Source of the DNA: an uncultured Actinomycetota bacterium
GTDB taxonomy: Bacteria; Actinomycetota; Actinomycetes; JAHEKZ01
Length of the DNA stretch: 64,000 nt
NCBI GenBank assembly: GCA_963824605.1
Contig: CAWGPZ010000009.1
Coordinates: forward strand, 127,763 to 191,762
Reading direction: 5' to 3'
Of this stretch, positions 154-60,313 are shown one piece after another. Made by a program: the position numbers and the translations under genes. Numbering within the stretch: position 1 is the stretch's first letter; the number at the start of each line of letters is the position of its first letter. Under the pieces are notes generated by a model that was given only the letters and a program-made list of their open reading frames with translations, searched no databases and had not been told where the DNA came from.

Positions 154-1067
154 GACGCGTCACGTCGGGCTGCGGAATCGCGCACACCGAGCTCGTCGAC
201 CAGCCGGCCGAGGCTTCCGTCGTGACGGAAATCGGTGAGGTGAAGACCGGAGACACCGGGCAGCGAGAGCGCATGGCGTGCCTGCTCAAGGGTGTGTTGG
301 TAGGCCTCTTCTGCCTCGTCGTCCGCATTCGCGACGCGGTCGATCACGTCGCCAGGAACACTGATGCCAGGTACCTCGCGGTCCATGAAACGAAGCGCGC
401 CGGCACGCTTGACGAGCACGAGCGTGGGCAGCAGCGCGGTCTTCCTGGTCACTCCGTTCTCGACGCAACCGGCGACGAACGCCTCGAGTCGATCGGGGTG
501 ATAGCCGATCTGCAGCTGCAGGAACCGTGCCCCGGCATCGCTCTTGGTCTTCGCACGCTCAACCCGGTAGTCGATGGGAGGGGCGAACGGGTTCTCAACG
601 GCTCCGACGAACAGATCTGGGGCGGGGTCGATCTTGCGACCTGACACGTAGTGCCCTTCGGCAAGACCTGTCGCCACCGAGATGACCTGTGGCCCATCAA
701 GGTCGAAGACCCGGCGAGCCTCGGGTTCGTCACCAGCGGTGACATCGTCGCCGGTCAAGGCACAGATGTTGCGTACACCGAACATCGAGGCACCGACGAT
801 GTCGGCCTGGATCGCGATGCGGTTCTTGTCGCGGCACACCACTTGCATGATCGGTTCGACGCCGGCCTGCTGCATCGCTATCGCGATGGCGACGTTTGAG
901 GCGTGAGCGTGCGCTGCCGGGTTGTCGGTGGCATTGATCGCGTCGACGTACGGCGCGATCGCCTCGAGTCGCTCGCTGACCTTTGCCAACCCGCCACCGT
1001 CAATGGCCGGCAGCTCGGCAGTGATGACCGGCCGGGTGCCGGCCTCGAGAAGGGCCTGCAGGGTCAC
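150..1067 (-). CDS. metF: Methylenetetrahydrofolate reductase
   Basis: TAELP, NATDNP, CRDKNRIAIQ, ALTGD and GAVENP motifs of the MTHFR TIM barrel. Confidence 0.85.
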   Translation of the reverse strand: MTLQALLEAGTRPVITAELPAIDGGGLAKVSERLEAIAPYVDAINATDNPAAHAHASNVAIAIAMQQAGVEPIMQVVCRDKNRIAIQADIVGASMFGVRNICALTGDDVTAGDEPEARRVFDLDGPQVISVATGLAEGHYVSGRKIDPAPDLFVGAVENPFAPPIDYRVERAKTKSDAGARFLQLQIGYHPDRLEAFVAGCVENGVTRKTALLPTLVLVKRAGALRFMDREVPGISVPGDVIDRVANADDEAEEAYQHTLEQARHALSLPGVSGLHLTDFRHDGSLGRLVDELGVRDSAARRDAS

Positions 1068-1732
1068 TGGGCACGAACCAGTGCGCGGCGGTTTTCGAGG
1101 AGTTCTTTGGCGCGGCGGACCGCGGTCGACGCGTCAGCTGCGTACCCATCAGCACCCACCGCGTCGGCGTACTCCTGAGTGACCGGAGCACCACCCACCA
1201 TCACGATCACCTGATCGCGCACCCCAGCCTTCTCCAACGCATTGATGTTCGCCTTGAACATCGGCATCGTCGTGGTCAAGAACGCCGAGAACCCCACAAT
1301 GTCCGGGGAATGCTCCTCGATCGCGGCGACGAACTTCTCCGGAGCCACCTGCACCCCCAGATCAATCACCTCAAACCCCGCACCCTCCAACATGATGTTC
1401 ACCAAGTTCTTCCCGATGTCATGCACATCACCCTTGACCGTGCCCATCAAGAACTTGCCCACCGTCTCAGCACCGGTCGCCGCCAACAACGGCCGCAACA
1501 CCTCCAACGCCCCCGACATCGCCCGACCAGCGATCAACATCTCCGGCACGAAGAAGTCACCCCGCTCGAACCGGGCACCCACCTCCTCCAACGACGGAAT
1601 CAACGCCTCGAACAACAACGTCTCAGGACCCATCCCCAACCCAAGACCATCATTGGTCAACTCCAACACCGCCGGCGCATTACCCACCAACGTCTCGTCG
1701 AACAACCCCTTCAAAATCTCCTCAGGCGTCAT
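1064..1732 (-). CDS. Stand-alone corrinoid (cobalamin-binding) protein of a methyltransferase system
   Basis: Cap domain (FVPEMLIAGRAM) plus B12 motif GTVKGDVHDIGKN, SAFLTTT, VGGAP; start moved to MTPEEILKG. Confidence 0.9.
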   Translation of the reverse strand: MTPEEILKGLFDETLVGNAPAVLELTNDGLGLGMGPETLLFEALIPSLEEVGARFERGDFFVPEMLIAGRAMSGALEVLRPLLAATGAETVGKFLMGTVKGDVHDIGKNLVNIMLEGAGFEVIDLGVQVAPEKFVAAIEEHSPDIVGFSAFLTTTMPMFKANINALEKAGVRDQVIVMVGGAPVTQEYADAVGADGYAADASTAVRRAKELLENRRALVRAQ

Positions 1733-1797
1733 GGTGTGCGGTCCTCCAGGCTTGCGGTGCGGGTCGCTTGACCTGCGCTGGTGTGGGGTCTTGTCGA

Positions 1798-1819
1798 GTC
1801 TTGGACAAGCGTCCAAGAC
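1798..1819. promoter_or_regulatory. Perfect inverted repeat GTCTTGGAC-aagc-GTCCAAGAC upstream of the corrinoid operon; putative operator
   Basis: 9-bp arms, 4-nt spacer, about 65 bp upstream of the corrinoid start. Confidence 0.45.
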
Positions 1820-1956
1820 GGCGGTGTCGTTGTCCAGCAGTCCGGACGAGGACCAGGCTAGTGTTCCACTGAGCGAAACGGCCACCGGGTCGGATCGTCT
1901 TGCTGCAGGTCAGACGGGTCGCGCTGTTCCATTTCTGGCCCGTCGGCGCCGATGAG

Positions 1957-13103: not shown

Positions 13104-13198
13104 CTCTCCCTACGCCGGAATGACCCGGACAGGTTCAGGCGGTCGGCGATCGGATCGTGCTGATCACCCTCTCAGCCCGTGATGGGCTCCCGCGGTGT
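13104..13198 (-). ncRNA. TPP riboswitch
   Basis: Minus strand GCGGGAGC..GGCTGAGAGGG..GACCGCC-TGAACCTGTCCGGGTCATTCCGGCGTAGGGAG; 3' end contains the permease SD, implying translational control. Confidence 0.93.
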
Positions 13199-13259
13199 GC
13201 GAGTCACCGTACGCCGTACCTCCGTCGGGCTCCAGCCGGGGACCCAAGACGCCGATCAC

Positions 13260-15056
13260 ATGACGGTGAAGCCCCCGTTGTCAGCGGGCCGAAAGGCCGC
13301 AGCTGAACCTCCTACGTCCGTTCCCGGATCGCTGGCGTCGCCTCGGCATGAACGGACGATGCGCAGACGCCTGGGCGAGGTGTTGGTCACCCACGAGGTC
13401 ATCGATGAGATCCAGCTCGACGAGCTGCTCGCCGAGCAGGCGACGCTGCGGTCAACAGATGGGTCCGGCCGCATGCGGCTGGGGCAGCTGGTGGTCTTTC
13501 GTGGGCTTGGTACCGAGGAGCAGGTCGCCGATGCACTGGGCGACCTCCTGGCGCTCGACGTCGTCGACCTGTCGATCGAGCCGGTCGACCCGACCGTGGC
13601 GCAGCTCATCCCTCGCGCGATGGCTGAGCGTTTCGGGCTGATCGTGCTCGCGAGGGAGGAGACGGGCTTGCGCGTCGCGGCCTCCGACCCGACGAACGTG
13701 CTGGCCCTGGACGACGTGCGTATTCACACCCGCGAGAGGTCGCTGCACGTGGTCGTCTCGACGCACTCCCAGATCGCGGCTCAGATCAAGCGGGTCTGGT
13801 CGATCGGTGACGACGCTGCGGATGCCGTCGAACTCCTGTCGATCGAGCACGACGACAACCAGGACGACGACGACACCGTGGACCAGACACCTACCGTGCG
13901 CCTGCTGGATGCGCTTCTCGGCGACGCGGTTCGCGGAGGAGCCAGCGACATCCATGTCGAGCCCCAACGCGACGCCGTCCGGATCAGGTACCGCATCGAC
14001 GGACTTCTGCGCGACATGATGACCGTGCCCCGTAACGCGGGTCCCAGCATGATCAGCCGCCTGAAGATCATCTCTGGCCTCGACATATCCGAGCGCCGGG
14101 TCCCGCAAGACGGCCGGACCCGCATCAGCGTGGACGGCACCGCCATTGACGCACGCGTCAGCACGCTTCCTGCGATCCACGGCGAGAAGATCGTGATCCG
14201 GCTTCTCACGTCGACCGACCACGTGCAGGCCCTGAACGAGCTAGGGCTACTCCCCGATCAGCTCGAAGCGCTTCGGAACTCGCTCCGTGTCTCGCAGGGG
14301 CTCATCCTGATCACTGGGCCGACAGGATCCGGGAAGACCAACACGCTGTACTCGGCAATCGACCATGTGATCACCCCGGAGCGCAATGTCGTCACGCTGG
14401 AAGACCCCGTCGAGATCCAGCTCCCCGGAATCACCCAGGTCAACGTGAATGTGCGAAGCGGCATGACCTTCGCGAGGGGGCTGCGCGCCGTTCTCCGCCA
14501 AGACCCAGATGTCGTACTCGTGGGGGAGATCCGCGACCAGGAGACCGCAGAGCTGGCACTGCGCGCCTCACTCACTGGCCACCTCGTTCTCAGCACGGTG
14601 CACACGAATGGAGCGGCCCAGGCACTGACGCGACTCGTTGACATGGAGATCGCGCCGTACCTGGTGGCCTCTTCGCTGAACTTGGTAGTGGCCCAGCGGC
14701 TCGTTCGCCGCGTATGCGAGGACTGCGCCGAGCCGTACGTGCCTTCCGATGAGATCTTGGCGACGCTCGCCGTCGACCTCAGCACGCTGACCCACGCCGA
14801 GCCGCGCCGCGGCACCGGCTGCGTGACATGCGGCACGACGGGCTACCGCGGGCGACTCGGAGTCTTCGAAGTGCTTCCGATCACCGCCGCGCTGCGTCGG
14901 GCCTTTGCCCACGAGCCGACCGAGGAGACCCTGCTCGACGTCGACCCCGGCTTCGTCACGCTGCAGCAGGCCGCCCTGCACCATGCCGCCAAGGGACTGA
15001 CGACGTTCGAAGAGGTGCTCCGCGTCACCCAGGTGGATGCCCCCGAGCCCCACTAA
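13260..15056 (+). CDS. pilB: GspE/PilB-family ATPase with N-terminal MshEN domain (start 13260 or 13359)
   Basis: Tandem RLGxxLV motifs, ASDIH, LDISERRVPQDG, Walker A GPTGSGKT, EDPVE, LRQDPD..GEIRD, TGHLVLSTVH, Cys4 zinc motif. Confidence 0.9.
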   Translation: MTVKPPLSAGRKAAAEPPTSVPGSLASPRHERTMRRRLGEVLVTHEVIDEIQLDELLAEQATLRSTDGSGRMRLGQLVVFRGLGTEEQVADALGDLLALDVVDLSIEPVDPTVAQLIPRAMAERFGLIVLAREETGLRVAASDPTNVLALDDVRIHTRERSLHVVVSTHSQIAAQIKRVWSIGDDAADAVELLSIEHDDNQDDDDTVDQTPTVRLLDALLGDAVRGGASDIHVEPQRDAVRIRYRIDGLLRDMMTVPRNAGPSMISRLKIISGLDISERRVPQDGRTRISVDGTAIDARVSTLPAIHGEKIVIRLLTSTDHVQALNELGLLPDQLEALRNSLRVSQGLILITGPTGSGKTNTLYSAIDHVITPERNVVTLEDPVEIQLPGITQVNVNVRSGMTFARGLRAVLRQDPDVVLVGEIRDQETAELALRASLTGHLVLSTVHTNGAAQALTRLVDMEIAPYLVASSLNLVVAQRLVRRVCEDCAEPYVPSDEILATLAVDLSTLTHAEPRRGTGCVTCGTTGYRGRLGVFEVLPITAALRRAFAHEPTEETLLDVDPGFVTLQQAALHHAAKGLTTFEEVLRVTQVDAPEPH

Positions 15057-33601: not shown

Positions 33602-34561
33602 CTAGTACGCCTGGGCTCCCGCGTATCGGGCGTTCGCGACCACGATTCCGGCTGGCGAGCTGACCAGACGCAAGGTGTTGAGCGAGGTCTCACCGAAGGC
33701 ATTGGCCCTGGCGCTGGACAGAGCGAGGACACCGATCATCCGCCCTCCTGCCTTGAGCGGCATGGACAGGAAGGTCGCCATCTCGCCTTCGTCCTCCGCA
33801 CCGAGGTAGCCCTCCGGGTCAGCCACCCTCGCCTGCAGATCGCCGACCGCGACGTCGACACCCGTGCTGTCAGTGGCGGCATCAGCGAGCGCGTCGAAGA
33901 ACTCGGAGTACTGCTGCTGTGACGTCTCCCGCGAGACGCGGATGTAGGTAGACCGGTCATCGAGCATCAGGACGGACGCCAGGTCGTAGTCGACCACTCG
34001 GCTGAGAACGTCGAGCACCTCGGCAATCGTCTCTTCGAACCCATGCACTCCGGAAGCGATCTGAGTGACCTCAGACGCCAGCGACGACTCAAAGAGCTTG
34101 CGGTCGAGCAGGTCGCTCACGCTGCCGAAGACATCGTCGTCCTGCATGTCGACGGGGTCGGGGCGCAGCGGCGGCCGTCCGCCACGAGCAGCGTCGGCCG
34201 CGCTGAGCACCTCGTGCACGGCCTCGACGAGCTGCGGGGCCTCGAAGTCCTTGGTCAGAAAGCGGTCAGCACCCGCCTGCGCTCCCCAGTAGCGGTCACT
34301 AGCGGCATCGAGCGAGGTCAGAAGCAGGATTGGGATGTCGGCCGTCCGCCAGTCGTCCTTGAGCAGTCTCGCTGTCACGTAGCCGGAGACCCTTGGCATC
34401 TGGACATCGAGCACGACGGCGTCTGGCATGTGCCGAAACACGAGTTGGACAGCTTCGACGCCGTCCTCTGCTTGAACGACGGTGTAGCCCTCTCGCTCCA
34501 GGACCGTCGAGACGATCCGACGCAGGGTAGGGCTGTCGTCGGCAATGACCACCGTCGGCAT
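33602..34561 (-). CDS. Response regulator, REC + GAF domain
   Basis: ADDS, LDVQMP phospho-Asp, LTS, FLTK; C-terminal GAF-like MPL..IGVLAL. Confidence 0.85.
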   Translation of the reverse strand: MPTVVIADDSPTLRRIVSTVLEREGYTVVQAEDGVEAVQLVFRHMPDAVVLDVQMPRVSGYVTARLLKDDWRTADIPILLLTSLDAASDRYWGAQAGADRFLTKDFEAPQLVEAVHEVLSAADAARGGRPPLRPDPVDMQDDDVFGSVSDLLDRKLFESSLASEVTQIASGVHGFEETIAEVLDVLSRVVDYDLASVLMLDDRSTYIRVSRETSQQQYSEFFDALADAATDSTGVDVAVGDLQARVADPEGYLGAEDEGEMATFLSMPLKAGGRMIGVLALSSARANAFGETSLNTLRLVSSPAGIVVANARYAGAQAY

Positions 34562-34646: not shown

Positions 34647-36854
34647 CTACCGCCCGACCAGCCGCCGCACCGTGTCGACGAGCTGAGACTGATCGAACTC
34701 GCTCTTGAGCAGATAGGCATTGGCCCCGGCATCGAGGCCAGCACGCTTGTCGGCGTCGTCGCCCCGCGAAGTCATGATGACGACGGGGACGCTCTCCCAC
34801 CCTCGGGTACGACGGATGGTCCTTGTCAACGTGAACCCATCCATACCGGGCATCTCCACGTCCGAGAGCACCAAGTCGACGGGGTCGCCGCTGAGGCGCG
34901 CCGCGCCGTCGCTGCCGTCGACTGCCGTCACGACGTCGTAGCCGGCTCCCTCGAGGATCACCCGCTGCAGTTCACGAACCCCGATCGAGTCTTCGACCAC
35001 CATCACGCGCGCCCGTCCAGTGGCAAGCCGGCCGGTCCGCTCGGGAATCACCGGGTCAGCGATGCCGTCGGCCGTCTGAGGAGTGGTGGGAGCATCGAGG
35101 GCGACGCCTCGCGCGTGCTGCTCGACCGCCATTTCCCGAACGTCAAGCAGCAACATCACACTGCCGTCGTTGGCGATCGTGCCTCCACCGATGAACGGCG
35201 GCCTTCCGAGGAAGCCCCCCAAGTCCTTGACGACGACTTCGAGTTCTCCCTCGAGCTCGTCGACCGCCCAAGCAAGCTGCTCTGACACGCCCCCATACCG
35301 GACGACCACACCAACCTTCGTCTCGCGGTCACCGTGCACACCAAGAGCGCTGCCAAGATCAGCGAGCGGGATGGTCGAACCGTGCCGGACAAGAACCGCC
35401 GCCCCTGCAACGGTGGAGGTCTCGACATCGCTCAGGCTGATGGTCTCGACGACATTGGTGACGGGGACGGCATAGCGCTCGCTGCCGAGCCGAGCCACCA
35501 GACACCGCATCACGCCCAGCGTGACGGGAAGCGTCATGATGAAACTCGTACCCTCACCCAGGGTGCTCTCGATCTCAATCGTCCCACCGAGGTCCTCAAC
35601 GGCTGTCCGCACGACATCGAGTCCGACTCCACGGCCCGACGTCGAGGTGACCTCATCGCGGGTACTGAACCCGGGCGCGAAGAGCACCGACATCAGAGCC
35701 TGACCCGTGACCTGCGTATCGGCGGTCAACAGTCCTCGTTCGATCGCTGAGAGCCGTAGCGCCTCCTCGTCGATCCCGTAGCCGTCGTCCGCGACCTCAA
35801 TGACGATCGTTGAGCCTGCGGCCCTTGCGGAGACCGTCACGGTGGCCTGGGCCGGCTTGCCGGCCGCAAGACGCTCGGAGGGAGTTTCACAGCCATGGTC
35901 GATGGCATTGGTCACGAGGTGACGCAGAGCATCGGCAACACCGTCGAGGACACGCGTATCGAGCTCGATGTCCTCGCCGATCAGTCGCAACCGAACATCT
36001 TTGGCGGTCGAACCCGCTACCTCGCGCACCAGCTGCGGGAAGGCTGCAAACACCCGTCGAGCCGGGACCATGGCCAGGCCCATCGCGCCGTCACGTACTT
36101 GCCCGAGGCCGTTCTGAGCATCTTCCATCGAGCCACGCATCTCGCGCGCCGCCGCCTGCAACTGGTCGCCGAGTGCCACCAGACTGTGCACGTTCTCGGC
36201 CACCTCGGACGGAACCGAGGCATCAGTTGCCGTCACCTGACGGAGGGCTCGGACGATGCGAACGTGTTCGGCCGCGAGACCGGTCAGCTCCAGAACGCCT
36301 TGTTCAACCCGACGCACCTCGAGCTCAGCCTCACCCACGACGTCCAAGAGGTCGTGGACACGTCGAACCGGTACGCGGACAGACTCGCCCGTCTTGGCTC
36401 TACCCCTGCCGTCGCTCTCGACCTCCTCCTCGGCGGCGGACAGTCGCGGAGTCTCCACAGGGTTCTTTCCATCGAGCGCATGGTCAAGGGCAGCGACCAC
36501 CTGGGCAAGATCATCGTCGCTGATCGCCCTGGCTGCTCCGGGCAGTCCCCGGCGAATGCCCTCCGCGGACGCGAGGAGGAGGTCGACGAGATCGCGGCGC
36601 GGCTCGAATCGGCCGTCCTTGATCGCGGTCAGTACATCCTCGGCGCGGTGGGCCAGCTCGACGACGTTGTCGAGGCCCCACATGGTGGCGCTGCCTTTGA
36701 CGGTGTGCGCATCGCGTGCAAGTTCCCTGATGAGCTGTCGGGGCTGCGGATGATTCTCGAGCTTCAGGAGCCCATCGCAGAGCGAGGCAAGACGGTCTTC
36801 GACTTCCTGTCTGAAGGTCGCCACCAGCTCGGGGTCATCGGCCCAGCTGCTCAT
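34647..36854 (-). CDS. cheA: Hybrid chemotaxis histidine kinase CheA (Hpt-dimer-HATPase-CheW-REC)
   Basis: AHTVKG Hpt, [32 protein letters not shown], CheW-like P5, C-terminal SDVEMP receiver. Confidence 0.93.
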
Positions 36855-38731
36855 GCGTTCACCAGTTCCTCTGCCGTTCCTGCAAGTGCTGTGTCTGTGC
36901 CTTCGTGATCGGTGGTCTTGAATTGGGCGATGGAGGCGCGGAGGTCGCCTGCGAGGGAGTTCAGCTCGGTAGCAGCAGCCGCCGCCTGCTTGGACCCCAC
37001 CGCATACTGCCGCGACACATCAGCGACCTGACCCATCGCCGACACCACCTGCTCAGACGCCGAACGCTGCTGCTGCGTCGCAATACTGATCTCCTTCGCA
37101 GCCGTCGTCGTCTCATCCACCATCCCCGAAATCCGCTCCAACGCCCCCACCACATCCCGCGCCAACGCAGACCCCGCATGAACCTCCCGCGACCCCTCCT
37201 CAGAAGCCAAAATCGTCGCGTTCGTCTCCGCCTGAATCTGCGTCACAATCGACTGGATCTGACCAGCAGACTCCTGCGACCGCTCCGCCAGCTTCCGAAT
37301 CTCCGCAGCGACCACCGCAAACCCACGCCCATGCTCACCCGCACGAGCCGCCTCAATCGCCGCATTCAACGCCAACAAGTTCGTCTGATCAGCCAACTCA
37401 TCAATCACCTGCAAAATCCGGCCGATCTCCTGACCCTTCTCCCCCAATCCCAACGCCCGAGAAGCAATCTGATCCACCCGCGACGAAATCTGATCCATCG
37501 CATCCACAGACGCCGACACCGCCACCCGACCCTGCTCAGCAAACCCCAAAGTCTCCGAAGCAAACGACGCCACCTGCTCAGCCGTCTCAGCAATCTGAGC
37601 CGCCGTCGCCGCCAACTCCTCAATCGTCGCCGACGTCTCCGACACCGCAGACGACTGCTCAGACGCAGCCGCAGCCTGCTCACGAGCAGCCACCAACACC
37701 TGAGAAGCAGACACCCCAATCTGCTCCCCACCCACCCGCACCCGAGACACCAAACCCCGCAACGACCCCAACGTGTGATCGAAGGACTGTGCAAGCGCCA
37801 CGAGGTACTCGGTGCGTTCGAATCCGAACTCGTTCTCTTCATCCAGGGTCACAAGATTGATCTGAGTGGTCAGGTCTCCTTGCGAAGCCGCCGTAAGCGC
37901 CTCTGACAGCTGACGCACCTGGTCGACCAGATGGGCCTGATCCCAACCCGCGCCCTCTGCCGTGTCGTAGAGCGACTTGCTCACACCACGCACAATCTGG
38001 AAGGCACCCGGGAGCCCGAGGCTCAACGCCAGGAGCAGAGTGACTGTGCTTGAGCCGGCGTCCAGGATCGTGCCCTCGGCAGCGAACTGAGTGGCGCTGG
38101 GCAAGACGAAAAGCAGTGCGAGGAGGACCCAGCCCAACCCGTAGACGAGAACGGTCCCGAGGTAGGCGAGAGCAACGACGACGGCCAGCCACTGGGCACT
38201 GCCGGCTCCACCCGTCCAGATCGCGGCGCTTGCCACCGCAAGAGTCTGCGCCATGCCGAGCCAGCCGTCCCAGACGTCCGTTCGCGAGTAGGTGTGCCGG
38301 CCACGGTAGGCACGGACTGCCAAGGTTGAGACCACCACTGCCAGGATGACACCGAGCGACCAGACGATCCACAGCTGAAAGGGGACTGCGGAGCCTTGTC
38401 CGAGGAAGTAGGTCATACCGAGCGCGATGCTGAACGCAACGAGACCGGCGTGCAGCGAGATGCTCTCCACCATGTTGCGGCGGGTGAACCTCAGCGACGC
38501 TCCCCCCGACTTGGTGCGGTCAATGGAGTCCAAGGCCGAGGTAAGCGCAGCGCTGGCCTCCGCTGACTGATGTGCGCTCACGTCTCCTCCATCAACGGCC
38601 ACAGTGACCGGTTCTTGGAGGTCATCGGCGTGCCCGGACACGGGCTGTAGCCCGTTTGGGGGACCGTGCAGCTCAGATCTGGGGCTGGGCCTCGTGCTCG
38701 ACCCTTCGCGCGGCAGGTCGGGGGTCGTCAC
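36851..38731 (-). CDS. Methyl-accepting chemotaxis protein 1
   Basis: Multi-TM N-terminus, HAMP-like [31 protein letters not shown]. Confidence 0.92.
36919..37780. repeat. MCP signalling-domain repeat, copy 1 (862 bp)
   Basis: Matches 38741-39602 (offset 1822) and 40470-41331. Confidence 0.92.
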
Positions 38732-40313
38732 CGGAGTCCTTGAATTGGGCGATGGAGGCGCGGAGGTCGCCTGCGAGGGAGTTCAGCTCGGTAGCAGCAG
38801 CCGCCGCCTGCTTGGACCCCACCGCATACTGCCGCGACACATCAGCGACCTGACCCATCGCCGACACCACCTGCTCAGACGCCGAACGCTGCTGCTGCGT
38901 CGCAATACTGATCTCCTTCGCAGCCGTCGTCGTCTCATCCACCATCCCCGAAATCCGCTCCAACGCCCCCACCACATCCCGCGCCAACGCAGACCCCGCA
39001 TGAACCTCCCGCGACCCCTCCTCAGAAGCCAAAATCGTCGCGTTCGTCTCCGCCTGAATCTGCGTCACAATCGACTGGATCTGACCAGCAGACTCCTGCG
39101 ACCGCTCCGCCAGCTTCCGAATCTCCGCAGCGACCACCGCAAACCCACGCCCATGCTCACCCGCACGAGCCGCCTCAATCGCCGCATTCAACGCCAACAA
39201 GTTCGTCTGATCAGCCAACTCATCAATCACCTGCAAAATCCGGCCGATCTCCTGACCCTTCTCCCCCAATCCCAACGCCCGAGAAGCAATCTGATCCACC
39301 CGCGACGAAATCTGATCCATCGCATCCACAGACGCCGACACCGCCACCCGACCCTGCTCAGCAAACCCCAAAGTCTCCGAAGCAAACGACGCCACCTGCT
39401 CAGCCGTCTCAGCAATCTGAGCCGCCGTCGCCGCCAACTCCTCAATCGTCGCCGACGTCTCCGACACCGCAGACGACTGCTCAGACGCAGCCGCAGCCTG
39501 CTCACGAGCAGCCACCAACACCTGAGAAGCAGACACCCCAATCTGCTCCCCACCCACCCGCACCCGAGACACCAAACCCCGCAACGACCCCAACGTGTGA
39601 TCCAACCGTCCGGCCAGAGCGACCGTGCCCTCAGCCTGCAAAGTCAACGACGACATCTCTACCGCCAGATCGCCAGCAGCCACCTCATCAGCAGCACCCG
39701 ACATCGCCACCACATCAGACTCGACCGCATGCCGGGTCGCCTGCGCCTCAGCCTGCGCCCGGTACATGCTCATCGTCATCAGGTCAGTCACCGTCGCCAA
39801 CACAATCGCCAGCACAATCAACCCGATCCCACGAGCCGCACCCTCACCACCCCACGAATCCGTCACCACACCAGTGACCACCATGCCTGCGGCGATGAAC
39901 AGGCCAAGGAATCGCGCAACGATGCCGCCATAGACGCCACTCGCATAGGTGATCATCACCAAGGCAACGACGGGGACCGGACCAGCGAGTCCACCCGCAA
40001 AGACCCCGAAGGAGAGCGAGAGAATGAGGGTCACCGATGTGGTGGGCCGATCCCAACGATCGGTTTCTGCGAACGAGTCCCCCCGGGAAACCGCTCGATT
40101 GGCCAGGTAGCTGACAAGCACGACGTTGACCAGGAGCGCGGCATAGAGGCCGGCAAGAGCAGGCCAGTTGAAGTCCAGGAAGGGCTCGAACTTCGCCGTC
40201 GCCCAGATCAGAACTGGCGCGGCGAGCGCGACGCCCACATGCGATGCCACGGTCTCTAACCTGGAGCGCGAGGTGTACGGGATCTCGCTGTAGTCCACGT
40301 TGTCGGCAAACAC
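38673..40313 (-). CDS. Methyl-accepting chemotaxis protein 2
   Basis: GTG start after GAGGAGG; multi-TM; same signalling domain. Confidence 0.9.
38741..39873. repeat. MCP repeat, copy 2 (1133 bp shared with copy 3)
   Basis: Matches 40470-41602 (offset 1729); only four substitutions spotted by eye. Confidence 0.92.
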
Positions 40314-40440
40314 GCTTCCGCGCCTCCTCGGTCCCAATAGGCAGTCAGTTCTGCTTCGGACAGTCACTGCCGGGCCTGTAGGCCGATCGGGTGGCAGTTC
40401 CATGACAGGAACTGCCTTGAGCCGCAGTGTTGACCTGGGG

Positions 40441-42042
40441 TTATCGGTAGGCGGGTTCGTCGGTGGTGGTGAATTGGGCGATGGAGGCGCGGAGGTCGCC
40501 TGCGAGGGAGTTCAGCTCGGTAGCAGCAGCCGCCGCCTGCTTGGACCCCACCGCATACTGCCGCGACACATCAGCGACCTGACCCATCGCCGACACCACC
40601 TGCTCAGACGCCGAACGCTGCTGCTGCGTCGCAATACTGATCTCCTTCGCAGCCGTCGTCGTCTCATCCACCATCCCCGAAATCCGCTCCAACGCCCCCA
40701 CCACATCCCGCGCCAACGCAGACCCCGCATGAACCTCCCGCGACCCCTCCTCAGAAGCCAAAATCGTCGCGTTCGTCTCCGCCTGAATCTGCGTCACAAT
40801 CGACTGAATCTGACCAGCAGACTCCTGCGACCGCTCCGCCAGCTTCCGAATCTCCGCAGCGACCACCGCAAACCCACGCCCATGCTCACCCGCACGAGCC
40901 GCCTCAATCGCCGCATTCAACGCCAACAAGTTCGTCTGATCAGCCAACTCATCAATCACCTGCAGAATCCGGCCGATCTCCTGACCCTTCTCCCCCAATC
41001 CCAACGCCCGAGAAGCAATCTGATCCACCCGCGACGAAATCTGATCCATCGCATCCACAGACGCCGACACCGCCACCCGACCCTGCTCAGCAAACCCCAA
41101 AGTCTCCGAAGCAAACGACGCCACCTGCTCAGCCGTCTCAGCAATCTGAGCCGCCGTCGCCGCCAACTCCTCAATCGTCGCCGACGTCTCCGACACCGCA
41201 GACGACTGCTCAGACGCAGCCGCAGCCTGCTCACGAGCAGCCACCAACACCTGAGAAGCAGACACCCCAATCTGCTCCCCACCCACCCGCACCCGAGACA
41301 CCAAACCCCGCAACGACCCCAACGTGTGATCCAACCGTCCGGCCAGAGCGACCGTGCCCTCAGCCTGCAAAGTCAACGACGACATCTCTACCGCCAGATC
41401 GCCAGCAGCCACCTCATCAGCAGCACCCGACATCGCCACCACATCAGACTCGACCGCATGCCGGGTCGCCTGCGCCTCAGCCTGCGCCCGGAACATGCTC
41501 ATCGACATCAGGTCAGTCACCGTCGCCAACACAATCGCCAGCACAATCAACCCGATCCCACGAGCCGCACCCTCACCACCCCACGAATCCGTCACCACAC
41601 CAACCAGCACGATGCATGCGGAAACCCATACGCCGAGGAACCGGACGATCCAGCCGCTGTACACGCTGGTTGCGTAGGTGATGGGAATGAGGAGCGCCAC
41701 AGGCACCGGACCGTTCAAGCCACCCCCCGCGATGGCCGCTCCCGTCGTCGCCGCGAAAGCGACCGTCATCGTGGGAATCTCCCACCGGTCAACAGCCTCA
41801 TAGTGGTCGCCACGGCCAACGGCACGGAACGCCATCAGAACGGCGAAGGCCGTATTCGCCACCAACACGGTGATGAAGACGGCGCCGAGCCACATCGTGA
41901 TCTCCACCGCCGGCAGCACGATGGCAGTGGTCGCGATGAGGAGCGCGACTGCAGCCGTCAGGGCACCATGAGACGTGATCGTCTCCCACATCGCCCGGCG
42001 CGTATAGGGCACCAGGGTGTAGTCGACGTCGTCGTCCAGCAC
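40441..42042 (-). CDS. Methyl-accepting chemotaxis protein 3
   Basis: GTG start after GGAGG; multi-TM; same signalling domain. Confidence 0.92.
40470..41602. repeat. MCP repeat, copy 3
   Basis: Near-identical to copy 2. Confidence 0.92.
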
Positions 42043-42167
42043 GACAAATCAGTCCCTCCGCGGATCCTCGTGCCGTGACATCGGCTGACTCGACGCACTT
42101 CTTGATCACGGGCCAGGACCCGATGTCGCCACAGGATCGATCGACGCCGACAGACGGGGAGTGACTA

Positions 42168-42707
42168 TCAGCCCGCAGCTCGGCGAGCAGCGGGGAGCCG
42201 CTCGCGTAGTCGAAGAACGGCTTCGGTCGCCAGAAGCGCAACAGGACCGTCGACGTCGACGACGCCACGCACGAGGGGTGCGATCCCCGTCGCAATCGTG
42301 GCAGGCACCGGCTCGAGATCTCGGGCGTCGCAGTCGAGCAGGCCGGGAACCATGTCGGCCACCAGCCCGACTTCGATGTCGGCCTCGGCCAGCACGACCA
42401 ACCGGGCACTCGTCGGCATCGGCGACAGGGTCGCCCCCACCAGCGGCCTCAGGTCGATCACCGGAAGTACCCGTCCACGCCAGTTGACGACCCCTGACAG
42501 CCATGCCGGACCGCCAGGGATCCGAGTCAACACAGGGACAGGCACCACTTCAGCAACCGACGCCATGTCGACGGCGTAGCGGCCGCCGGCGAACCGCAGA
42601 ATGACGCCGCCGATCGGCGCGGCATCTTCCTCAGATGCCTCATCGGCCACGCCTGCAGGACTAGTCAGGGACTCCACGGACTGACCATCGGCCATCCGGG
42701 TGACCAC
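42168..42707 (-). CDS. cheW: Chemotaxis coupling protein CheW
   Basis: YAVD..VAEV, TRIPGGPAWLSGVVNWRGRVLPVIDL, VGLVAD. Confidence 0.9.
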   Translation of the reverse strand: MVTRMADGQSVESLTSPAGVADEASEEDAAPIGGVILRFAGGRYAVDMASVAEVVPVPVLTRIPGGPAWLSGVVNWRGRVLPVIDLRPLVGATLSPMPTSARLVVLAEADIEVGLVADMVPGLLDCDARDLEPVPATIATGIAPLVRGVVDVDGPVALLATEAVLRLRERLPAARRAAG

Positions 42708-42737: not shown

Positions 42738-44684
42738 TCAACGCGGGGCTGACTCCCGGTCGCCCACGCCTCGAAGGTCAATGACCTGTTCCTCCTGGGC
42801 AGCGGCCAGGACATCGGTGATCTCACGCCCGATCAGCTCTTCGCGCTCGAGGAGTGCGTCACGCAGGGCTTCGACCAGGTGGGCGTTCGACTCGAGCAGG
42901 CCCTTGACGATCACCTTCTGCTCCTGCAGGAGGTCTTCCACGGCGGCGCGACCCGCAGGATCAGCCAGGACACGCCCCACGATGTTGCTGTCGTTCAGAG
43001 CGCTGTTCTGGATCGCGGCAAAGGAGATCAGCGAATCGATCATGCCGCAGGAACCCACCATCTCCGCAGCGACGTTCGTGGCGTAGAGAAGGTCGCCACC
43101 GGGACCTGTCGACACGTCCCCGAAGAAGATCTCTTCAGCGCACTGGCCGCCCATGGCGATCTGGATGAGGGCCAACATCTCGGTACGTGACCTCGTGTAC
43201 ACCTCTTCTGCATCACCGTGGGCGAGCATGCCGAGGGCGGACCGTCGCTTGATGATGGTCAGTACCTCGAGCCGACGCTCAGGTGCCACCAGGAAGGCGG
43301 CAGTGGCGTGTCCCGCCTCGTGCGTCGAGATCAACCGTCGCTCGTGCACGGTGTATGCGACCGGCTGCCCCATTCCCACTTCTTCAACGAGTCTGGCCCG
43401 TTCGACGTCCGACCAGCTCATCTCCGAGTCCCCACGCCGCACTGCGTTCACCAGAGCCTCGTCCAGCAGGTGTTCGATCATGACGGGGGTGTAGCCCTGG
43501 GTGGCGGCGGCGAGCGAGTCGCGACGATCTTCGGTGTCGAGCTCTTCGCCGTGAGACTTGATGCCCAAGTAGTGATCGATGATCTCGCGGCGCCCCGACT
43601 TTGCCGGCAGTTCGAAGGTGAGCCGCCGGTCAAAGCGTCCAGGACGCAACAGCGCGGGATCGAGGTTGTCGGCCCGGTTGGTGGCAGCGATCAGAAGCAG
43701 ATTGGTCGACGGAGGCTCGGGGCGACTCAACTGACGATGTGAAGGCAGGTAGAGATTGGCCCAGTCCACCATCTTGGTGCGCAGCTTCTGCAGGCCGGTG
43801 GGCTGATCGAACGACTGCATCTGCACCAGCAGCTCGTTGACGACTCCGCCTACCCCTTCGCTGGTGATCGAGGCGTTGCTCACGGGACCCGCCGGTGCTC
43901 CATACCCAGAAGGCAGCGAGGTCATCCCCCCACATGCGTGGACGCCCAGCGAAGCAAGGGATGGGGGAAGAGGAGTTGCGGACAAGCCACCACGAGACAT
44001 GGCGATGGCGTCGATCTCTTCGATGAAGCCGATTGCGCCGCCCTCGGCCCGAGCGACCTTGCGCAGCTGCTTGAAGTACGACCGGATCTTGCGCGCGGTG
44101 GCGCCGTAGTACATCGACTGAAAGGAGGTCGCCGATACGAACAGGAAGGGCACCCCCGCTTCGCGCGCCATCGCCTTCGCCAGATAGGTCTTCCCCGTTC
44201 CAGGTGCCCCTTCGAAGAGAATTCCCCGCCGCGGCGTCCCACCCATGTCGTTGGCAAAGGCCTTGTGCGCCAGGAAGAGATTGAGTGATCGAATCACCTC
44301 GTCCTTCACCGGGTCGATGCCCTTTACATCGTCGAGCCGCGTCGAAATCTGTTCGGGGCGGTACATCACGTGGGGCGACCGTCCGGCGCCCACGGTGGTG
44401 CCGACGATGATGAGGAGCAGCGCGCTGAAGAACAGAATGGGCACCAGCAGGTACGCGTCGATACTGGGCAGCCCCCACTCGGCGGGATTGCCGCTGAGGA
44501 TCCGGTACCAGAGATAGAGGGCGGGGATACCGAGCCACACGGCCATGACGCGGAGCCGATGGCGTCGCTTCGACTCTCGGGACGCACCGACGTCGGCGTC
44601 ACCGGCGCGCATCACCGTCGTGCTCGAGAGCGAGGGTCCCGTCAATGCAGACACCTCGGTGGCCTCACGCTCTGTATCTGACAC
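42738..44684 (-). CDS. FtsH-like membrane AAA+ ATPase / M41 metalloprotease paralogue
   Basis: Two TM, GAPGTGKT, FIEEID, ATNRADNLDPALLRPGRFDR, HEAGH, STGPGGDL. Confidence 0.88.
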   Translation of the reverse strand: MSDTEREATEVSALTGPSLSSTTVMRAGDADVGASRESKRRHRLRVMAVWLGIPALYLWYRILSGNPAEWGLPSIDAYLLVPILFFSALLLIIVGTTVGAGRSPHVMYRPEQISTRLDDVKGIDPVKDEVIRSLNLFLAHKAFANDMGGTPRRGILFEGAPGTGKTYLAKAMAREAGVPFLFVSATSFQSMYYGATARKIRSYFKQLRKVARAEGGAIGFIEEIDAIAMSRGGLSATPLPPSLASLGVHACGGMTSLPSGYGAPAGPVSNASITSEGVGGVVNELLVQMQSFDQPTGLQKLRTKMVDWANLYLPSHRQLSRPEPPSTNLLLIAATNRADNLDPALLRPGRFDRRLTFELPAKSGRREIIDHYLGIKSHGEELDTEDRRDSLAAATQGYTPVMIEHLLDEALVNAVRRGDSEMSWSDVERARLVEEVGMGQPVAYTVHERRLISTHEAGHATAAFLVAPERRLEVLTIIKRRSALGMLAHGDAEEVYTRSRTEMLALIQIAMGGQCAEEIFFGDVSTGPGGDLLYATNVAAEMVGSCGMIDSLISFAAIQNSALNDSNIVGRVLADPAGRAAVEDLLQEQKVIVKGLLESNAHLVEALRDALLEREELIGREITDVLAAAQEEQVIDLRGVGDRESAPR

Positions 44685-44837
44685 GCCGACTCCTTGGCTC
44701 AGGTTCGGACCACCCGTTCTACCGAGCGTCACAACACTGGCCACTCTCTCCCAGTAATCCCAGGAGGGACAGTGGGAAGCGCGAGCCGTCACCCAGACGG
44801 CGTATCGATGCCGGCAAAGAGGTCACTCTCGAAACCA

Positions 44838-59190: not shown

Positions 59191-60313
59191 CGAGCAGATC
59201 CCCCAGGCGCTCGGCATCGAGCGCGTGCAGAACCAAGTGATCTCGACCCTCCATCGTCTCGGCCTGCAACATTGCATTGAGAATCGCCTCAGCTGTCGCC
59301 TCGATGACCGCTGCAAACATGCCGTCAAAATGAGGAAGCGCCAGCGTCTGAACCGTAAGGGCCGCAGGCGTCGTCGAGCCCGGTCCCTGGTCGGGCAGAC
59401 CCCGCGCCGCCGTTGAGAATGCGATCATGAGGTCACCCGAGTAGTTGTCGCCCCTGGCCCCGAACTTGGCAATTCCGAGCCCAGCGCGCTGTGCCAAGCG
59501 ATTGAGTTGATGAGGAAGCAACGGCGCGTCCGTTGCGACGACGGCAAGCACCGACCCCGTGCCGGCTGGTACGGCCGTGGCCGACGGCATGCTGGGGATC
59601 GGAATCTCTCGTCGATCCAGCACCTGACCGACTGGCACACCATTCACCTCGAAGTGGCGACGATCACCATGGTTGGCTTGTACGAGGACCCCCACCGTGT
59701 AGGTGGCCTCGCCGCACCCCACCAGGCGTGATGCAGTGCCGCTGCCTCCCTTGAAGCCATAGCACTGAAGCCCTGTCCCGCCACCCACGTTTCCCTCGGC
59801 GATAGGGCCAGAACGGACGTCGTCAAACGCCGCACGCACGTGGTCAGGCGTGATGTGTTGACCGGAGATGTCGTTGAGGATGCCGTCCCATGTCTCGCCG
59901 ACGACCGGAAGCATGATGGGCGTCCGTCCTGGGACCTCCGCCTCCAGGGCAATCATGGTGTCGCGAACAACACCGACACTGTTTGTGTTGGTCAACGCAA
60001 TTGGGCTCGAGAGCATGCCGGACTCGTGCAGCCACTCGAGGCCAGTCAGTTCGCCGAATCCATTCAGTCGGTGATAGCCGGCGAAGATCGGCTCCACCGA
60101 CGGGCGACCGCCGTGCGGGAGCACGACCGTCACACCCGAGCGAACGGGGCCGTTCCCGACATCGAGATGTCCCGATCCGGCGATGACCGTGCAGTAGCCG
60201 ACGCCGACCCCATCGACATCGGTGATCGCGTTCCATGGGCCGGGACGGCCGGTACCGATTTCGATCCCCACGTCGCGCGCACGCACGCCCACTCCCATCG
60301 GTTCCAGGGACAA
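59156..60313 (-). CDS. DmpA/P1 family aminopeptidase
   Basis: NAITDV, NGFGE, PVVGETWDG, EGNVGGGTG, FKGG, cleavage G|SVLAVVATDAP, SGD. Confidence 0.9.
   Translation of the reverse strand: MSLEPMGVGVRARDVGIEIGTGRPGPWNAITDVDGVGVGYCTVIAGSGHLDVGNGPVRSGVTVVLPHGGRPSVEPIFAGYHRLNGFGELTGLEWLHESGMLSSPIALTNTNSVGVVRDTMIALEAEVPGRTPIMLPVVGETWDGILNDISGQHITPDHVRAAFDDVRSGPIAEGNVGGGTGLQCYGFKGGSGTASRLVGCGEATYTVGVLVQANHGDRRHFEVNGVPVGQVLDRREIPIPSMPSATAVPAGTGSVLAVVATDAPLLPHQLNRLAQRAGLGIAKFGARGDNYSGDLMIAFSTAARGLPDQGPGSTTPAALTVQTLALPHFDGMFAAVIEATAEAILNAMLQAETMEGRDHLVLHALDAERLGDLLDGHGRRRYSLR

Follow-up and report, generated by a model that had tools for sequence, protein, structure and literature searches.

The genes of the Campylobacter jejuni receptors Tlp2, Tlp3 and Tlp4 are dispersed. 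These group A receptors have been reported to carry identical signalling domains on sensors that are only ~30% identical, with a signalling tree that follows the species tree and a sensor tree that does not. The sensors are periplasmic dCache domains, and the available part of the paper terms the events domain duplications (PMC9769880). A second point of comparison is the Wsp-like cassette of the alternative cellular functions (ACF) class with a REC-GAF output, which comprises genes for an FtsH-like protein, CheW, a methyl-accepting chemotaxis protein (MCP) with six transmembrane (TM) helices, CheA-REC and REC-GAF. The same gene set occurs in the window described here, a stretch of 64,000 nucleotides from an uncultured Actinomycetota bacterium (assembly GCA_963824605.1, contig CAWGPZ010000009.1, positions 127,763 to 191,762), except that the receptor is expanded to a homogenised array of three tandem genes, mcp1, mcp2 and mcp3. 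It appears, with a probability of about 0.8, that each of these receptors combines an old sensor with a common module that is homogenised by biased gene conversion, G and T being favoured over A and C.

The genome of the window (G000) consists of 2.77 Mb in 17 contigs, with 65.5% GC, 99.4% completeness and 3.4% contamination. The gene copies were compared base by base without gaps, and a repeat search gave identical offsets. A first-pass annotation of the window had reported that 862 bp are common to all three MCP genes at offsets of 1822 and 1729 bp, and the ungapped comparison confirmed this (36919-37780, 38741-39602 and 40470-41331, with copy 3 differing at 2 silent sites). Between mcp1 and mcp2 (offset 1822), the identity covers 36917-37780, or 864 bp with 0 mismatches. 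The 1133 bp reported as common to mcp2 and mcp3 (38741-39873, offset 1729) also hold base by base with their four substitutions, of which those at 39078 and 39236 are silent and those at 39763 and 39776 give T/S and Y/F in the translations. The abrupt end of the identity was likewise reproduced, as identity drops within ~20 bp of both ends to a background of 20-40% per 50-bp window. Chance is ruled out as the source of the three 862-bp identities. In the whole assembly the block resides at three sites only, and there is one single-copy MCP with 76% identity to it.

The annotation had itself named a consensus or polishing artefact as one way in which its reading could fail. The stretch is present in 20 public runs from 12 studies. 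Logan contigs of runs X1, X4, X5 and X10 (four studies) were placed on mcp2. They stop or fork at 38739/41, 39597-39605 and 39873, and their loose ends correspond to the continuations of mcp1 and mcp3 in the window. In X5, the depth is ~28 : 51 : 74-95 for the unique, two-copy and three-copy parts, a 1:2:3 pattern. As the contigs of four independent studies branch at the block borders, the identity is not an assembly artefact. One X10 contig exits the block at window position 39605 into a sensor that matches none of the three window genes nor the extra gene of a relative (G005_1, see below); the natural population has a further sensor type on the same block. Elsewhere in G000, stretches of 5-13 kb are duplicated between contigs (C15/C6, C11-C12/C17 and C13/C6) at 88-98% identity. 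They seem to be pieces of a second related strain, and the contig of the window, C9, is uninvolved.

A search of 41 genomes, the window's own and 40 relatives, gave a match in 30, including all 19 relatives of the same family. Nine loci were fetched, the window included, and self-blastn was used for repeats. A block of ~820-920 bp is repeated 3 to 6 times with 98-100% identity in eight of the nine, the remaining locus (G016) having one copy. Trees and matrices were built only from tblastn hits that start at residue 1 and reach at least residue 281, giving 32 genes with a full gapless block; a relic in G005, one split G004 copy and five frameshifted G018 copies were left out. In the resulting 864-nt matrix, identity is 97-100% within genomes versus 75-97% between them. 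Within a genome, copies of the core of the block (nt 100-820) never fall below 98.9% identity and mostly reach 99.9-100%. The within-genome differences are confined to at most the first 95 and the last ~40 bases, and the tract ends are therefore staggered.

The trees of the two halves of the receptors have different shapes. In the block tree, copies cluster by genome, with 9 label changes against a minimum of 8 and a shuffled mean of 22.9. The tree of the 6-TM sensor and HAMP-like halves shows complete dispersal of the labels, with 25 changes (shuffled mean 22.7), and its orthologue groups extend across genera. Thus, the comparison of signalling and sensor trees proposed in the first-pass annotation finds the signalling parts clustered within the genome and the sensors by orthologue. 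Between G000 and its nearest relative, G005, 20 differences are fixed in all 3 versus all 4 copies. At site 527, the derived base is found in mcp1 and mcp2, with the ancestral base kept in mcp3. The proposal of ongoing homogenisation by gene conversion is borne out by the contrast of identities within and between genomes, by these fixed differences and by the site converted in two of three copies. Because the block is identical within and divergent between genomes, while the sensors group by orthologue across genera, the sequence comparisons strongly support concerted evolution, in which recurrent gene conversion between tandem copies would keep the kinase-control module homogenised. The homogenisation had been assigned to the kinase-interacting tip. 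The tip is indeed included, but the homogenised unit comprises all 288 residues of the module, which extends from the HAMP-like junction to the C-terminal helix.

The sensors have a different history. The divergence of the N-terminal regions was correctly noted: the unique parts of mcp2 and mcp3 share 57 of 146 residues with a synonymous divergence (dS, Nei-Gojobori throughout) of 1.9, and hence are old. The idea that sensors diversify fast or shuffle as cassettes was not upheld, as they form old paralogue lineages common to several genera and are under purifying selection (dN/dS ~0.15 for G000 versus G005). Arrays vary only through the gain and loss of genes, with full copies numbering 1 to 6, and to some extent in their order. 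G005 has one gene more than G000, and the two have orthologous tails and gene order. Just downstream of cheW, G005 carries a 231-bp relic of the 3′ end of the block (L037 3856-4086); this relic and the extra gene G005_1 make up a 2055-bp stretch that is absent from the window. A simple block-to-block crossover was rejected for this indel, whose ends lie off the block borders. One member type (G004_2, G007_2) has escaped homogenisation. In G019, a long tandem repeat with a period of ~375 bp and 86-96% identity lies between two array MCP genes (L041 8712-11696).

Among 73 further loci, 26 have at least two signalling domains (counting L068, whose repeats are mostly frameshifted). A near-identical block is present in 12 of these, another 2 have repeats at 86-89% identity, and 12 are without a DNA repeat. 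Seven of the 12 loci with a near-identical block had already been analysed; the five new, independent ones (L064, L066, L069, L070 and L085) behave in the same manner.

The converted tract also differs from its surroundings in codon usage and in synonymous rate. Both features coincide with the tract, and both are new relative to the first-pass annotation. On the coding strand, third positions in the block are G.65, T.26, C.08 and A.01, compared with.40,.17,.35 and.07 in the sensors and.35,.11,.45 and.08 genome-wide. Alanine codons number GCG 33, GCT 21, GCC 2 and GCA 1, and GTG outnumbers GTC by 22 to 2. TTG accounts for 17 of 21 leucine codons, GAT for 9 of 10 and ATT for 14 of 18. The skew begins and ends at the converted borders, the two-copy extension included, and the homologous unconverted part of mcp1 is normal. 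Among 97 block copies, the 37 homogenised ones have third-position G+T of.70-.95 (median.87) and the other 60 a median of.47. High outliers among the 60 are L059, L061, L063 and L068 (fragmented or frameshifted arrays), the escaped G007 member, L080, L109 and L099_1. A similar shift was found outside the array. The B12-binding (corrinoid) gene at window 1064-1885 (-) contains a 654-bp tract (1080-1733) that is 99.7% identical (2 mismatches) to G000:C6:117141-117794 with unrelated flanks; A is found at the third position in 0 of its 180 codons and G is raised, as in the MCP block.

In terms of synonymous divergence, the block lies 4-6 times below the flanks, the sensors and the single-copy MCP control. 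Between G000 and G005, its dS is 0.09 (18.8 synonymous differences per 225 sites), whereas eight comparators give 626/2399 and dS of.22-.38 (Fisher p 1.4e-10 versus the block). These are the three sensors (0.28-0.32), CheA (0.36), CheW (0.35), the FtsH-like protein (0.31), REC-GAF (0.22) and the same 288 codons of the single-copy MCP (0.38). The two-copy extension takes an intermediate value, 0.17 (p 0.016 versus the unique parts at 0.35-0.39; p 0.11 versus the block). The 288 codons of the single-copy MCP give.38,.60, 1.67 and.72 where the block gives.09,.16,.34 and.39. The escaped member has a dS of 1.67 between G004_2 and G007_2, as opposed to 0.31 for the block of the same two genomes. The one-copy G016 shows 0.96-1.68, compared with 0.09-0.69 among multi-copy genomes, with equal dN. 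In a second clade (L066 versus L070), the block has a dS of 0.11-0.14 and the flanks 0.63-1.04. A comparison of dS at equal dN in bins of pairs (63 representatives) was set aside because of two confounders, unequal GC3 and the scoring of fragmented arrays as single-copy. For FtsH, pairs that include G004 or G001 gave a dN near 2, which was ignored as an extraction and frame artefact. An embedded nucleic-acid element was rejected as the source of the conservation, since third-position conservation is spread across the whole block.

The classes of difference link the two features. In two close pairs pooled, the per-codon ratio of block to flank is 1.08 for G<->T,.09 for A<->G,.26 for C<->T,.13 for C<->G and.07 for A<->C, and A<->T stands at 0 of 22. 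G<->T differences make up 17 of 41 in the block versus 83 of 851 in the flanks (p 3e-7). Thus, changes involving A or C are 4-10 times rarer in the block, while G<->T changes occur at the flank rate. This indicates a bias in fixation rather than mutation, in which G and T of the coding strand would resist replacement; such resistance accounts for both the skew and the slow dS. With a reduced mutation rate, or with gene flow, all classes of difference would be lowered alike. GC-biased conversion was rejected, as the GC3 of the block is equal to or below that of the sensors, and so was translational selection, as EF-Tu prefers C-ending codons (GAC 26:1, ATC 28:2, TTG 1/23), opposite to the block. 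Biased conversion of the tract appears well supported, in an indirect manner, by these patterns.

The proposed scheme is as follows. Every receptor would consist of an old 6-TM sensor and a HAMP-like linker of its own, joined to a kinase-control module of 288 residues that is common to all and that recurrent non-reciprocal recombination between tandem copies would keep identical at the DNA level. Conversion tracts would stop where the homology of the sensor or tail ends. As a consequence, the single CheA/CheW, like CheB/CheR, would meet an identical surface on all receptors. If coding-strand G and T win over A and C during this process, G/T-ending codons that are anti-optimal would be written into exactly the converted tract, and the bias would suppress most synonymous substitutions, leaving silent sites 4-6 times slower.

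The cause of such a bias may tentatively be sought in NucS/EndoMS. NucS is a mismatch endonuclease of Actinobacteria that prefers G-T, G-G and T-T, notably not A-C, and that restrains homeologous recombination, according to the accessible text of PMC8228993. In Haloferax, NucS is reported to be required for gene conversion (PMC11276520). For M. tuberculosis, a preprint connects altered spectra in paralogues with NucS (PMC13061034). If the heteroduplex pairs the coding strand of the recipient with the antisense strand of the donor, NucS/EndoMS would cut heteroduplexes with G-T, G-G or T-T mismatches and spare those with A-C, C-C or A-A. Replacing G/T by A/C would make a cuttable mismatch and the reverse would not, such that recipient G/T would be protected and A/C overwritten. 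G<->T and A<->C exchanges would be unaffected under this polarity. The reported substrate preference predicts all four inequalities seen here (G>A, T>C, G>C and T>A) and G ~ T. The domain search found NucS_C in four of the five relatives searched, and no match to MutS_V. The polarity model predicts no skew in an inverted repeat, and an inverted 817-bp repeat indeed has none. On the plus strand, the GC skew is negative throughout the window; the genes are therefore co-oriented with replication, and the coding strand is the lagging-strand template. It is doubtful, less credible again than the role of NucS at this locus, that a new strand-specific, keto-favouring conversion through NucS/EndoMS overrides codon preference and largely freezes synonymous sites, maybe in all NucS-bearing bacteria and archaea with converting direct repeats. 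Neither keto-biased conversion nor NucS as a cause of conversion bias or codon skew was found in the literature searched, to the extent of its accessible text.

Several observations weigh against this account. The skew is not strictly tied to the multi-copy state, as G007_2 has third-position G+T (keto3) of.84 and the single-copy MCP on contig C8 ~.72. The L101 and L104 pairs, 90-94% identical, are without skew, and so is a 665-bp direct repeat on C14, which the polarity model leaves unexplained. The polarity of the heteroduplex is itself an assumption. The nucS gene of G000 (C13 ~59300-59915) has a one-base frameshift near 59772, either an assembly error or a real break, and nucS was not found in G005, a 69%-complete genome. 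The multi-copy genomes are relatives, hence the counts are not independent. All genomes are metagenome-assembled, some with indel errors. The dS estimates are without composition correction, and deep flank values are saturated. As for the unhomogenised domains with raised G+T (L040 6415-7278, which is G007_2, and G000:C8:30523-31521), they may be leftovers of earlier conversion; the longest run that the C8 gene has identical to the block is 32 bases.

Among other explanations, a mutational strand bias has the most in its favour, although it is unlikely. In this case, the coding strand of the repeat would often be single-stranded, in R-loops or recombination intermediates, where deamination would turn its C and A into T and G. 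The transitions run in the expected direction, the sign matches the replication skew of the window, and an altered transition spectrum in paralogous regions of M. tuberculosis is reported in the available part of the preprint (PMC13061034). However, a rise in the forward rate alone would keep A<->G and C<->T fluxes high, and they are ~11 and 4 times below the flank with G<->T unchanged. Total dS is lowered rather than raised. G is also favoured over C, and T over A (GTG 22 versus GTC 2), and the sensors of the same transcripts are normal.

Conversion could instead merely raise the efficacy of weak selection on synonymous sites, slowing dS and shaping codons (the Mano-Innan effect). Theory, in the portion of PMC3924837 available, has sites under purifying selection evolving more slowly in converting families and neutral sites not, and dS falls roughly with copy number here (.37,.17 and.09). 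Selection of this kind is quite improbable given that the codons of the block run opposite to those of EF-Tu (GAT 9:1 versus GAC 26:1, ATT 14:4 versus ATC 28:2, TTG 17/21 versus 1/23) and that single-copy homologues of the same domain are without such usage. Exchange of the block between species by homologous recombination, which would keep it similar between genomes, is more improbable still. The block is the longest conserved DNA of the locus, and conflict among quartet site patterns is somewhat higher in it (5/16) than in cheA (30/172), though the counts are small and give no clear signal. Gene flow would lower all classes of difference alike, and G<->T is not lowered; the block tree tracks the relationships of the flanks, the slowdown is similar at shallow and deeper nodes, and the skew would be left unexplained.

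Recent duplication of whole genes, followed by fast divergence or exchange of the sensors, has raw identity only on its side, as does an artefact of assembly or polishing, and the chance that either is correct is negligible: the sensor lineages are common to several genera with saturated dS, differences are fixed between species, and the pattern is seen in thirteen separate assemblies, with the same branch points in four metagenome contig graphs and a 1:2:3 depth in one. A programmed cassette system, in which different sensors would be joined in turn to a single expressed signalling module, would suit the constant and variable layout and the copy number of 1 to 6, yet it is scarcely credible, as all copies are full genes, each with a start and a tail of its own, G000 and G005 agree in gene order and have orthologous tails, and neither a silent cassette nor a recombinase was seen among the ~35 window ORFs scanned.

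The features of the locus are collected in Table 1. In each receptor, ~6 TM helices with conserved motifs are followed by a HAMP-like linker, then by the constant module of 288 residues and finally by a short tail that is unique. MCPsignal (PF00015) is the lone Pfam match in each of the three genes, at 148-150 bits versus a gathering cut-off of 34.6. The alignment shows a conserved A-x-GDL motif and an LAxS junction at the linker, which has no Pfam HAMP match. The sensor part matched no Pfam or NCBIfam family, and a word-based homologue search for the sensor family returned 6 proteins (8000 candidates scored). The start codon of mcp1 is uncertain because the longest open reading frame (ORF) runs 59 bp into the end of mcp2; its sensor type is that of the final array member, which always adjoins cheA in the relatives. 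Long antisense ORFs lie opposite mcp2 (38604-40259 (+), 551 codons) and mcp3 (40300-42078 (+), 592 codons). These are probably a by-product and not genes, as A is nearly absent at third positions. The AAA domain of the FtsH-like protease matched as two stretches with a ~95-residue insert between them, and the score is under the NCBIfam FtsH cut-off.

Table 1. Positions of the receptor array, its converted tracts and the neighbouring genes in the window.
Feature	Position	Strand	Description	Evidence or remark
mcp3	40441..42042	-	533-aa receptor, ~6 TM helices, HAMP-like linker, constant module, 9-aa tail	ORF, PF00015 at 311-492, hydropathy, alignment
mcp2	38673..40403	-	576-aa receptor, built like mcp3	closest sensor paralogue of mcp3
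mcp1	36851..38731	-	receptor adjoining cheA	start codon uncertain
Constant block in mcp1	36917..37780	-	kinase-control module, residues LDHTLGSL...SIAQF	0 mismatches versus copy 2
Constant block in mcp2	38739..39602	-		contig branch points in 4 metagenomes
Constant block in mcp3	40470..41331	-		2 silent differences versus other two copies
Two-copy extension of converted tract in mcp2	39603..39873	-	last TM and HAMP-like linker	partner 41332-41602 in mcp3; dS 0.17, skewed third positions
Two-copy extension in mcp3	41332..41602	-		partner of 39603..39873
cheW	42168..42707	-	directly upstream of array	PF01584, E 3.5e-28
cheA hybrid (Hpt-HATPase-CheW-REC)	34647..36854	-	sole CheA found in genome	
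REC-GAF response regulator	33602..34561	-	likely output	kept in 9/9 clusters
Divergent FtsH-like AAA/M41 protease	42738..44792	-	heads conserved cluster	9/9 genomes

On the minus strand, the order is FtsH-like protease, CheW, mcp3, mcp2, mcp1, the CheA-CheW-REC hybrid and REC-GAF, and this cluster is kept in all nine genomes compared. G000 has 5 MCPs in total, one CheA-type CheW domain and two CheW genes, with CheB and CheR encoded on a contig other than that of the array. By gene content, the three mcp genes are classed as the receptor array of a predicted non-flagellar chemosensory cluster of the ACF/Wsp-like type. There was no match to Flagellin_N in the 99.4%-complete genome, which has seven T2SSE ATPases. 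One of these, PilB-like with an MshEN domain, is at window 13179-15056 (+), ~20 kb from the cluster. As the genome is without a flagellin match and a PilB-like ATPase is ~20 kb away, pili are a possible target of the pathway.

For domain-limited concerted evolution in a bacterial sensory system, the array is a clean example from nature: several genera of uncultured actinomycetes have retained many old input modules alongside a single shared output module. It also suggests that conversion can leave a readable footprint, consisting of a strand-specific codon skew and a 4-6-fold slower silent rate. Applied to such tracts, dN/dS tests, molecular dating and screens based on codon usage or for horizontal transfer would give misleading results. 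If the link to NucS is true, natural sequences would report the in vivo mismatch specificity and the strand polarity of recombination in organisms without MutS/MutL. In the literature searched, no paper combines methyl-accepting receptors with concerted evolution.

Composition shifts through GC-biased gene conversion are known, as is a reduced synonymous rate in the inverted repeats of plastids. In these cases, as in the window, a shift in composition and a change of rate are confined to the converting DNA. The bias of the window differs from the GC-biased type, as it distinguishes keto (G, T) from amino (A, C) bases in a strand-specific manner, and the GC3 of the block is not raised. According to the theory of gene conversion, in the part of PMC3924837 available, conversion makes the paralogues of one genome alike while those of different species diverge, with neutral sites evolving at the single-copy rate. 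The block follows the same pattern of homogenisation, but its synonymous sites are 4-6 times slower and compositionally skewed. With respect to the Tlp receptors of C. jejuni, the genes of the window and its relatives differ in being tandem, in up to 6 copies, with 6-TM membrane sensors and in Actinomycetota, and they add concerted evolution, a codon skew and a slow dS.

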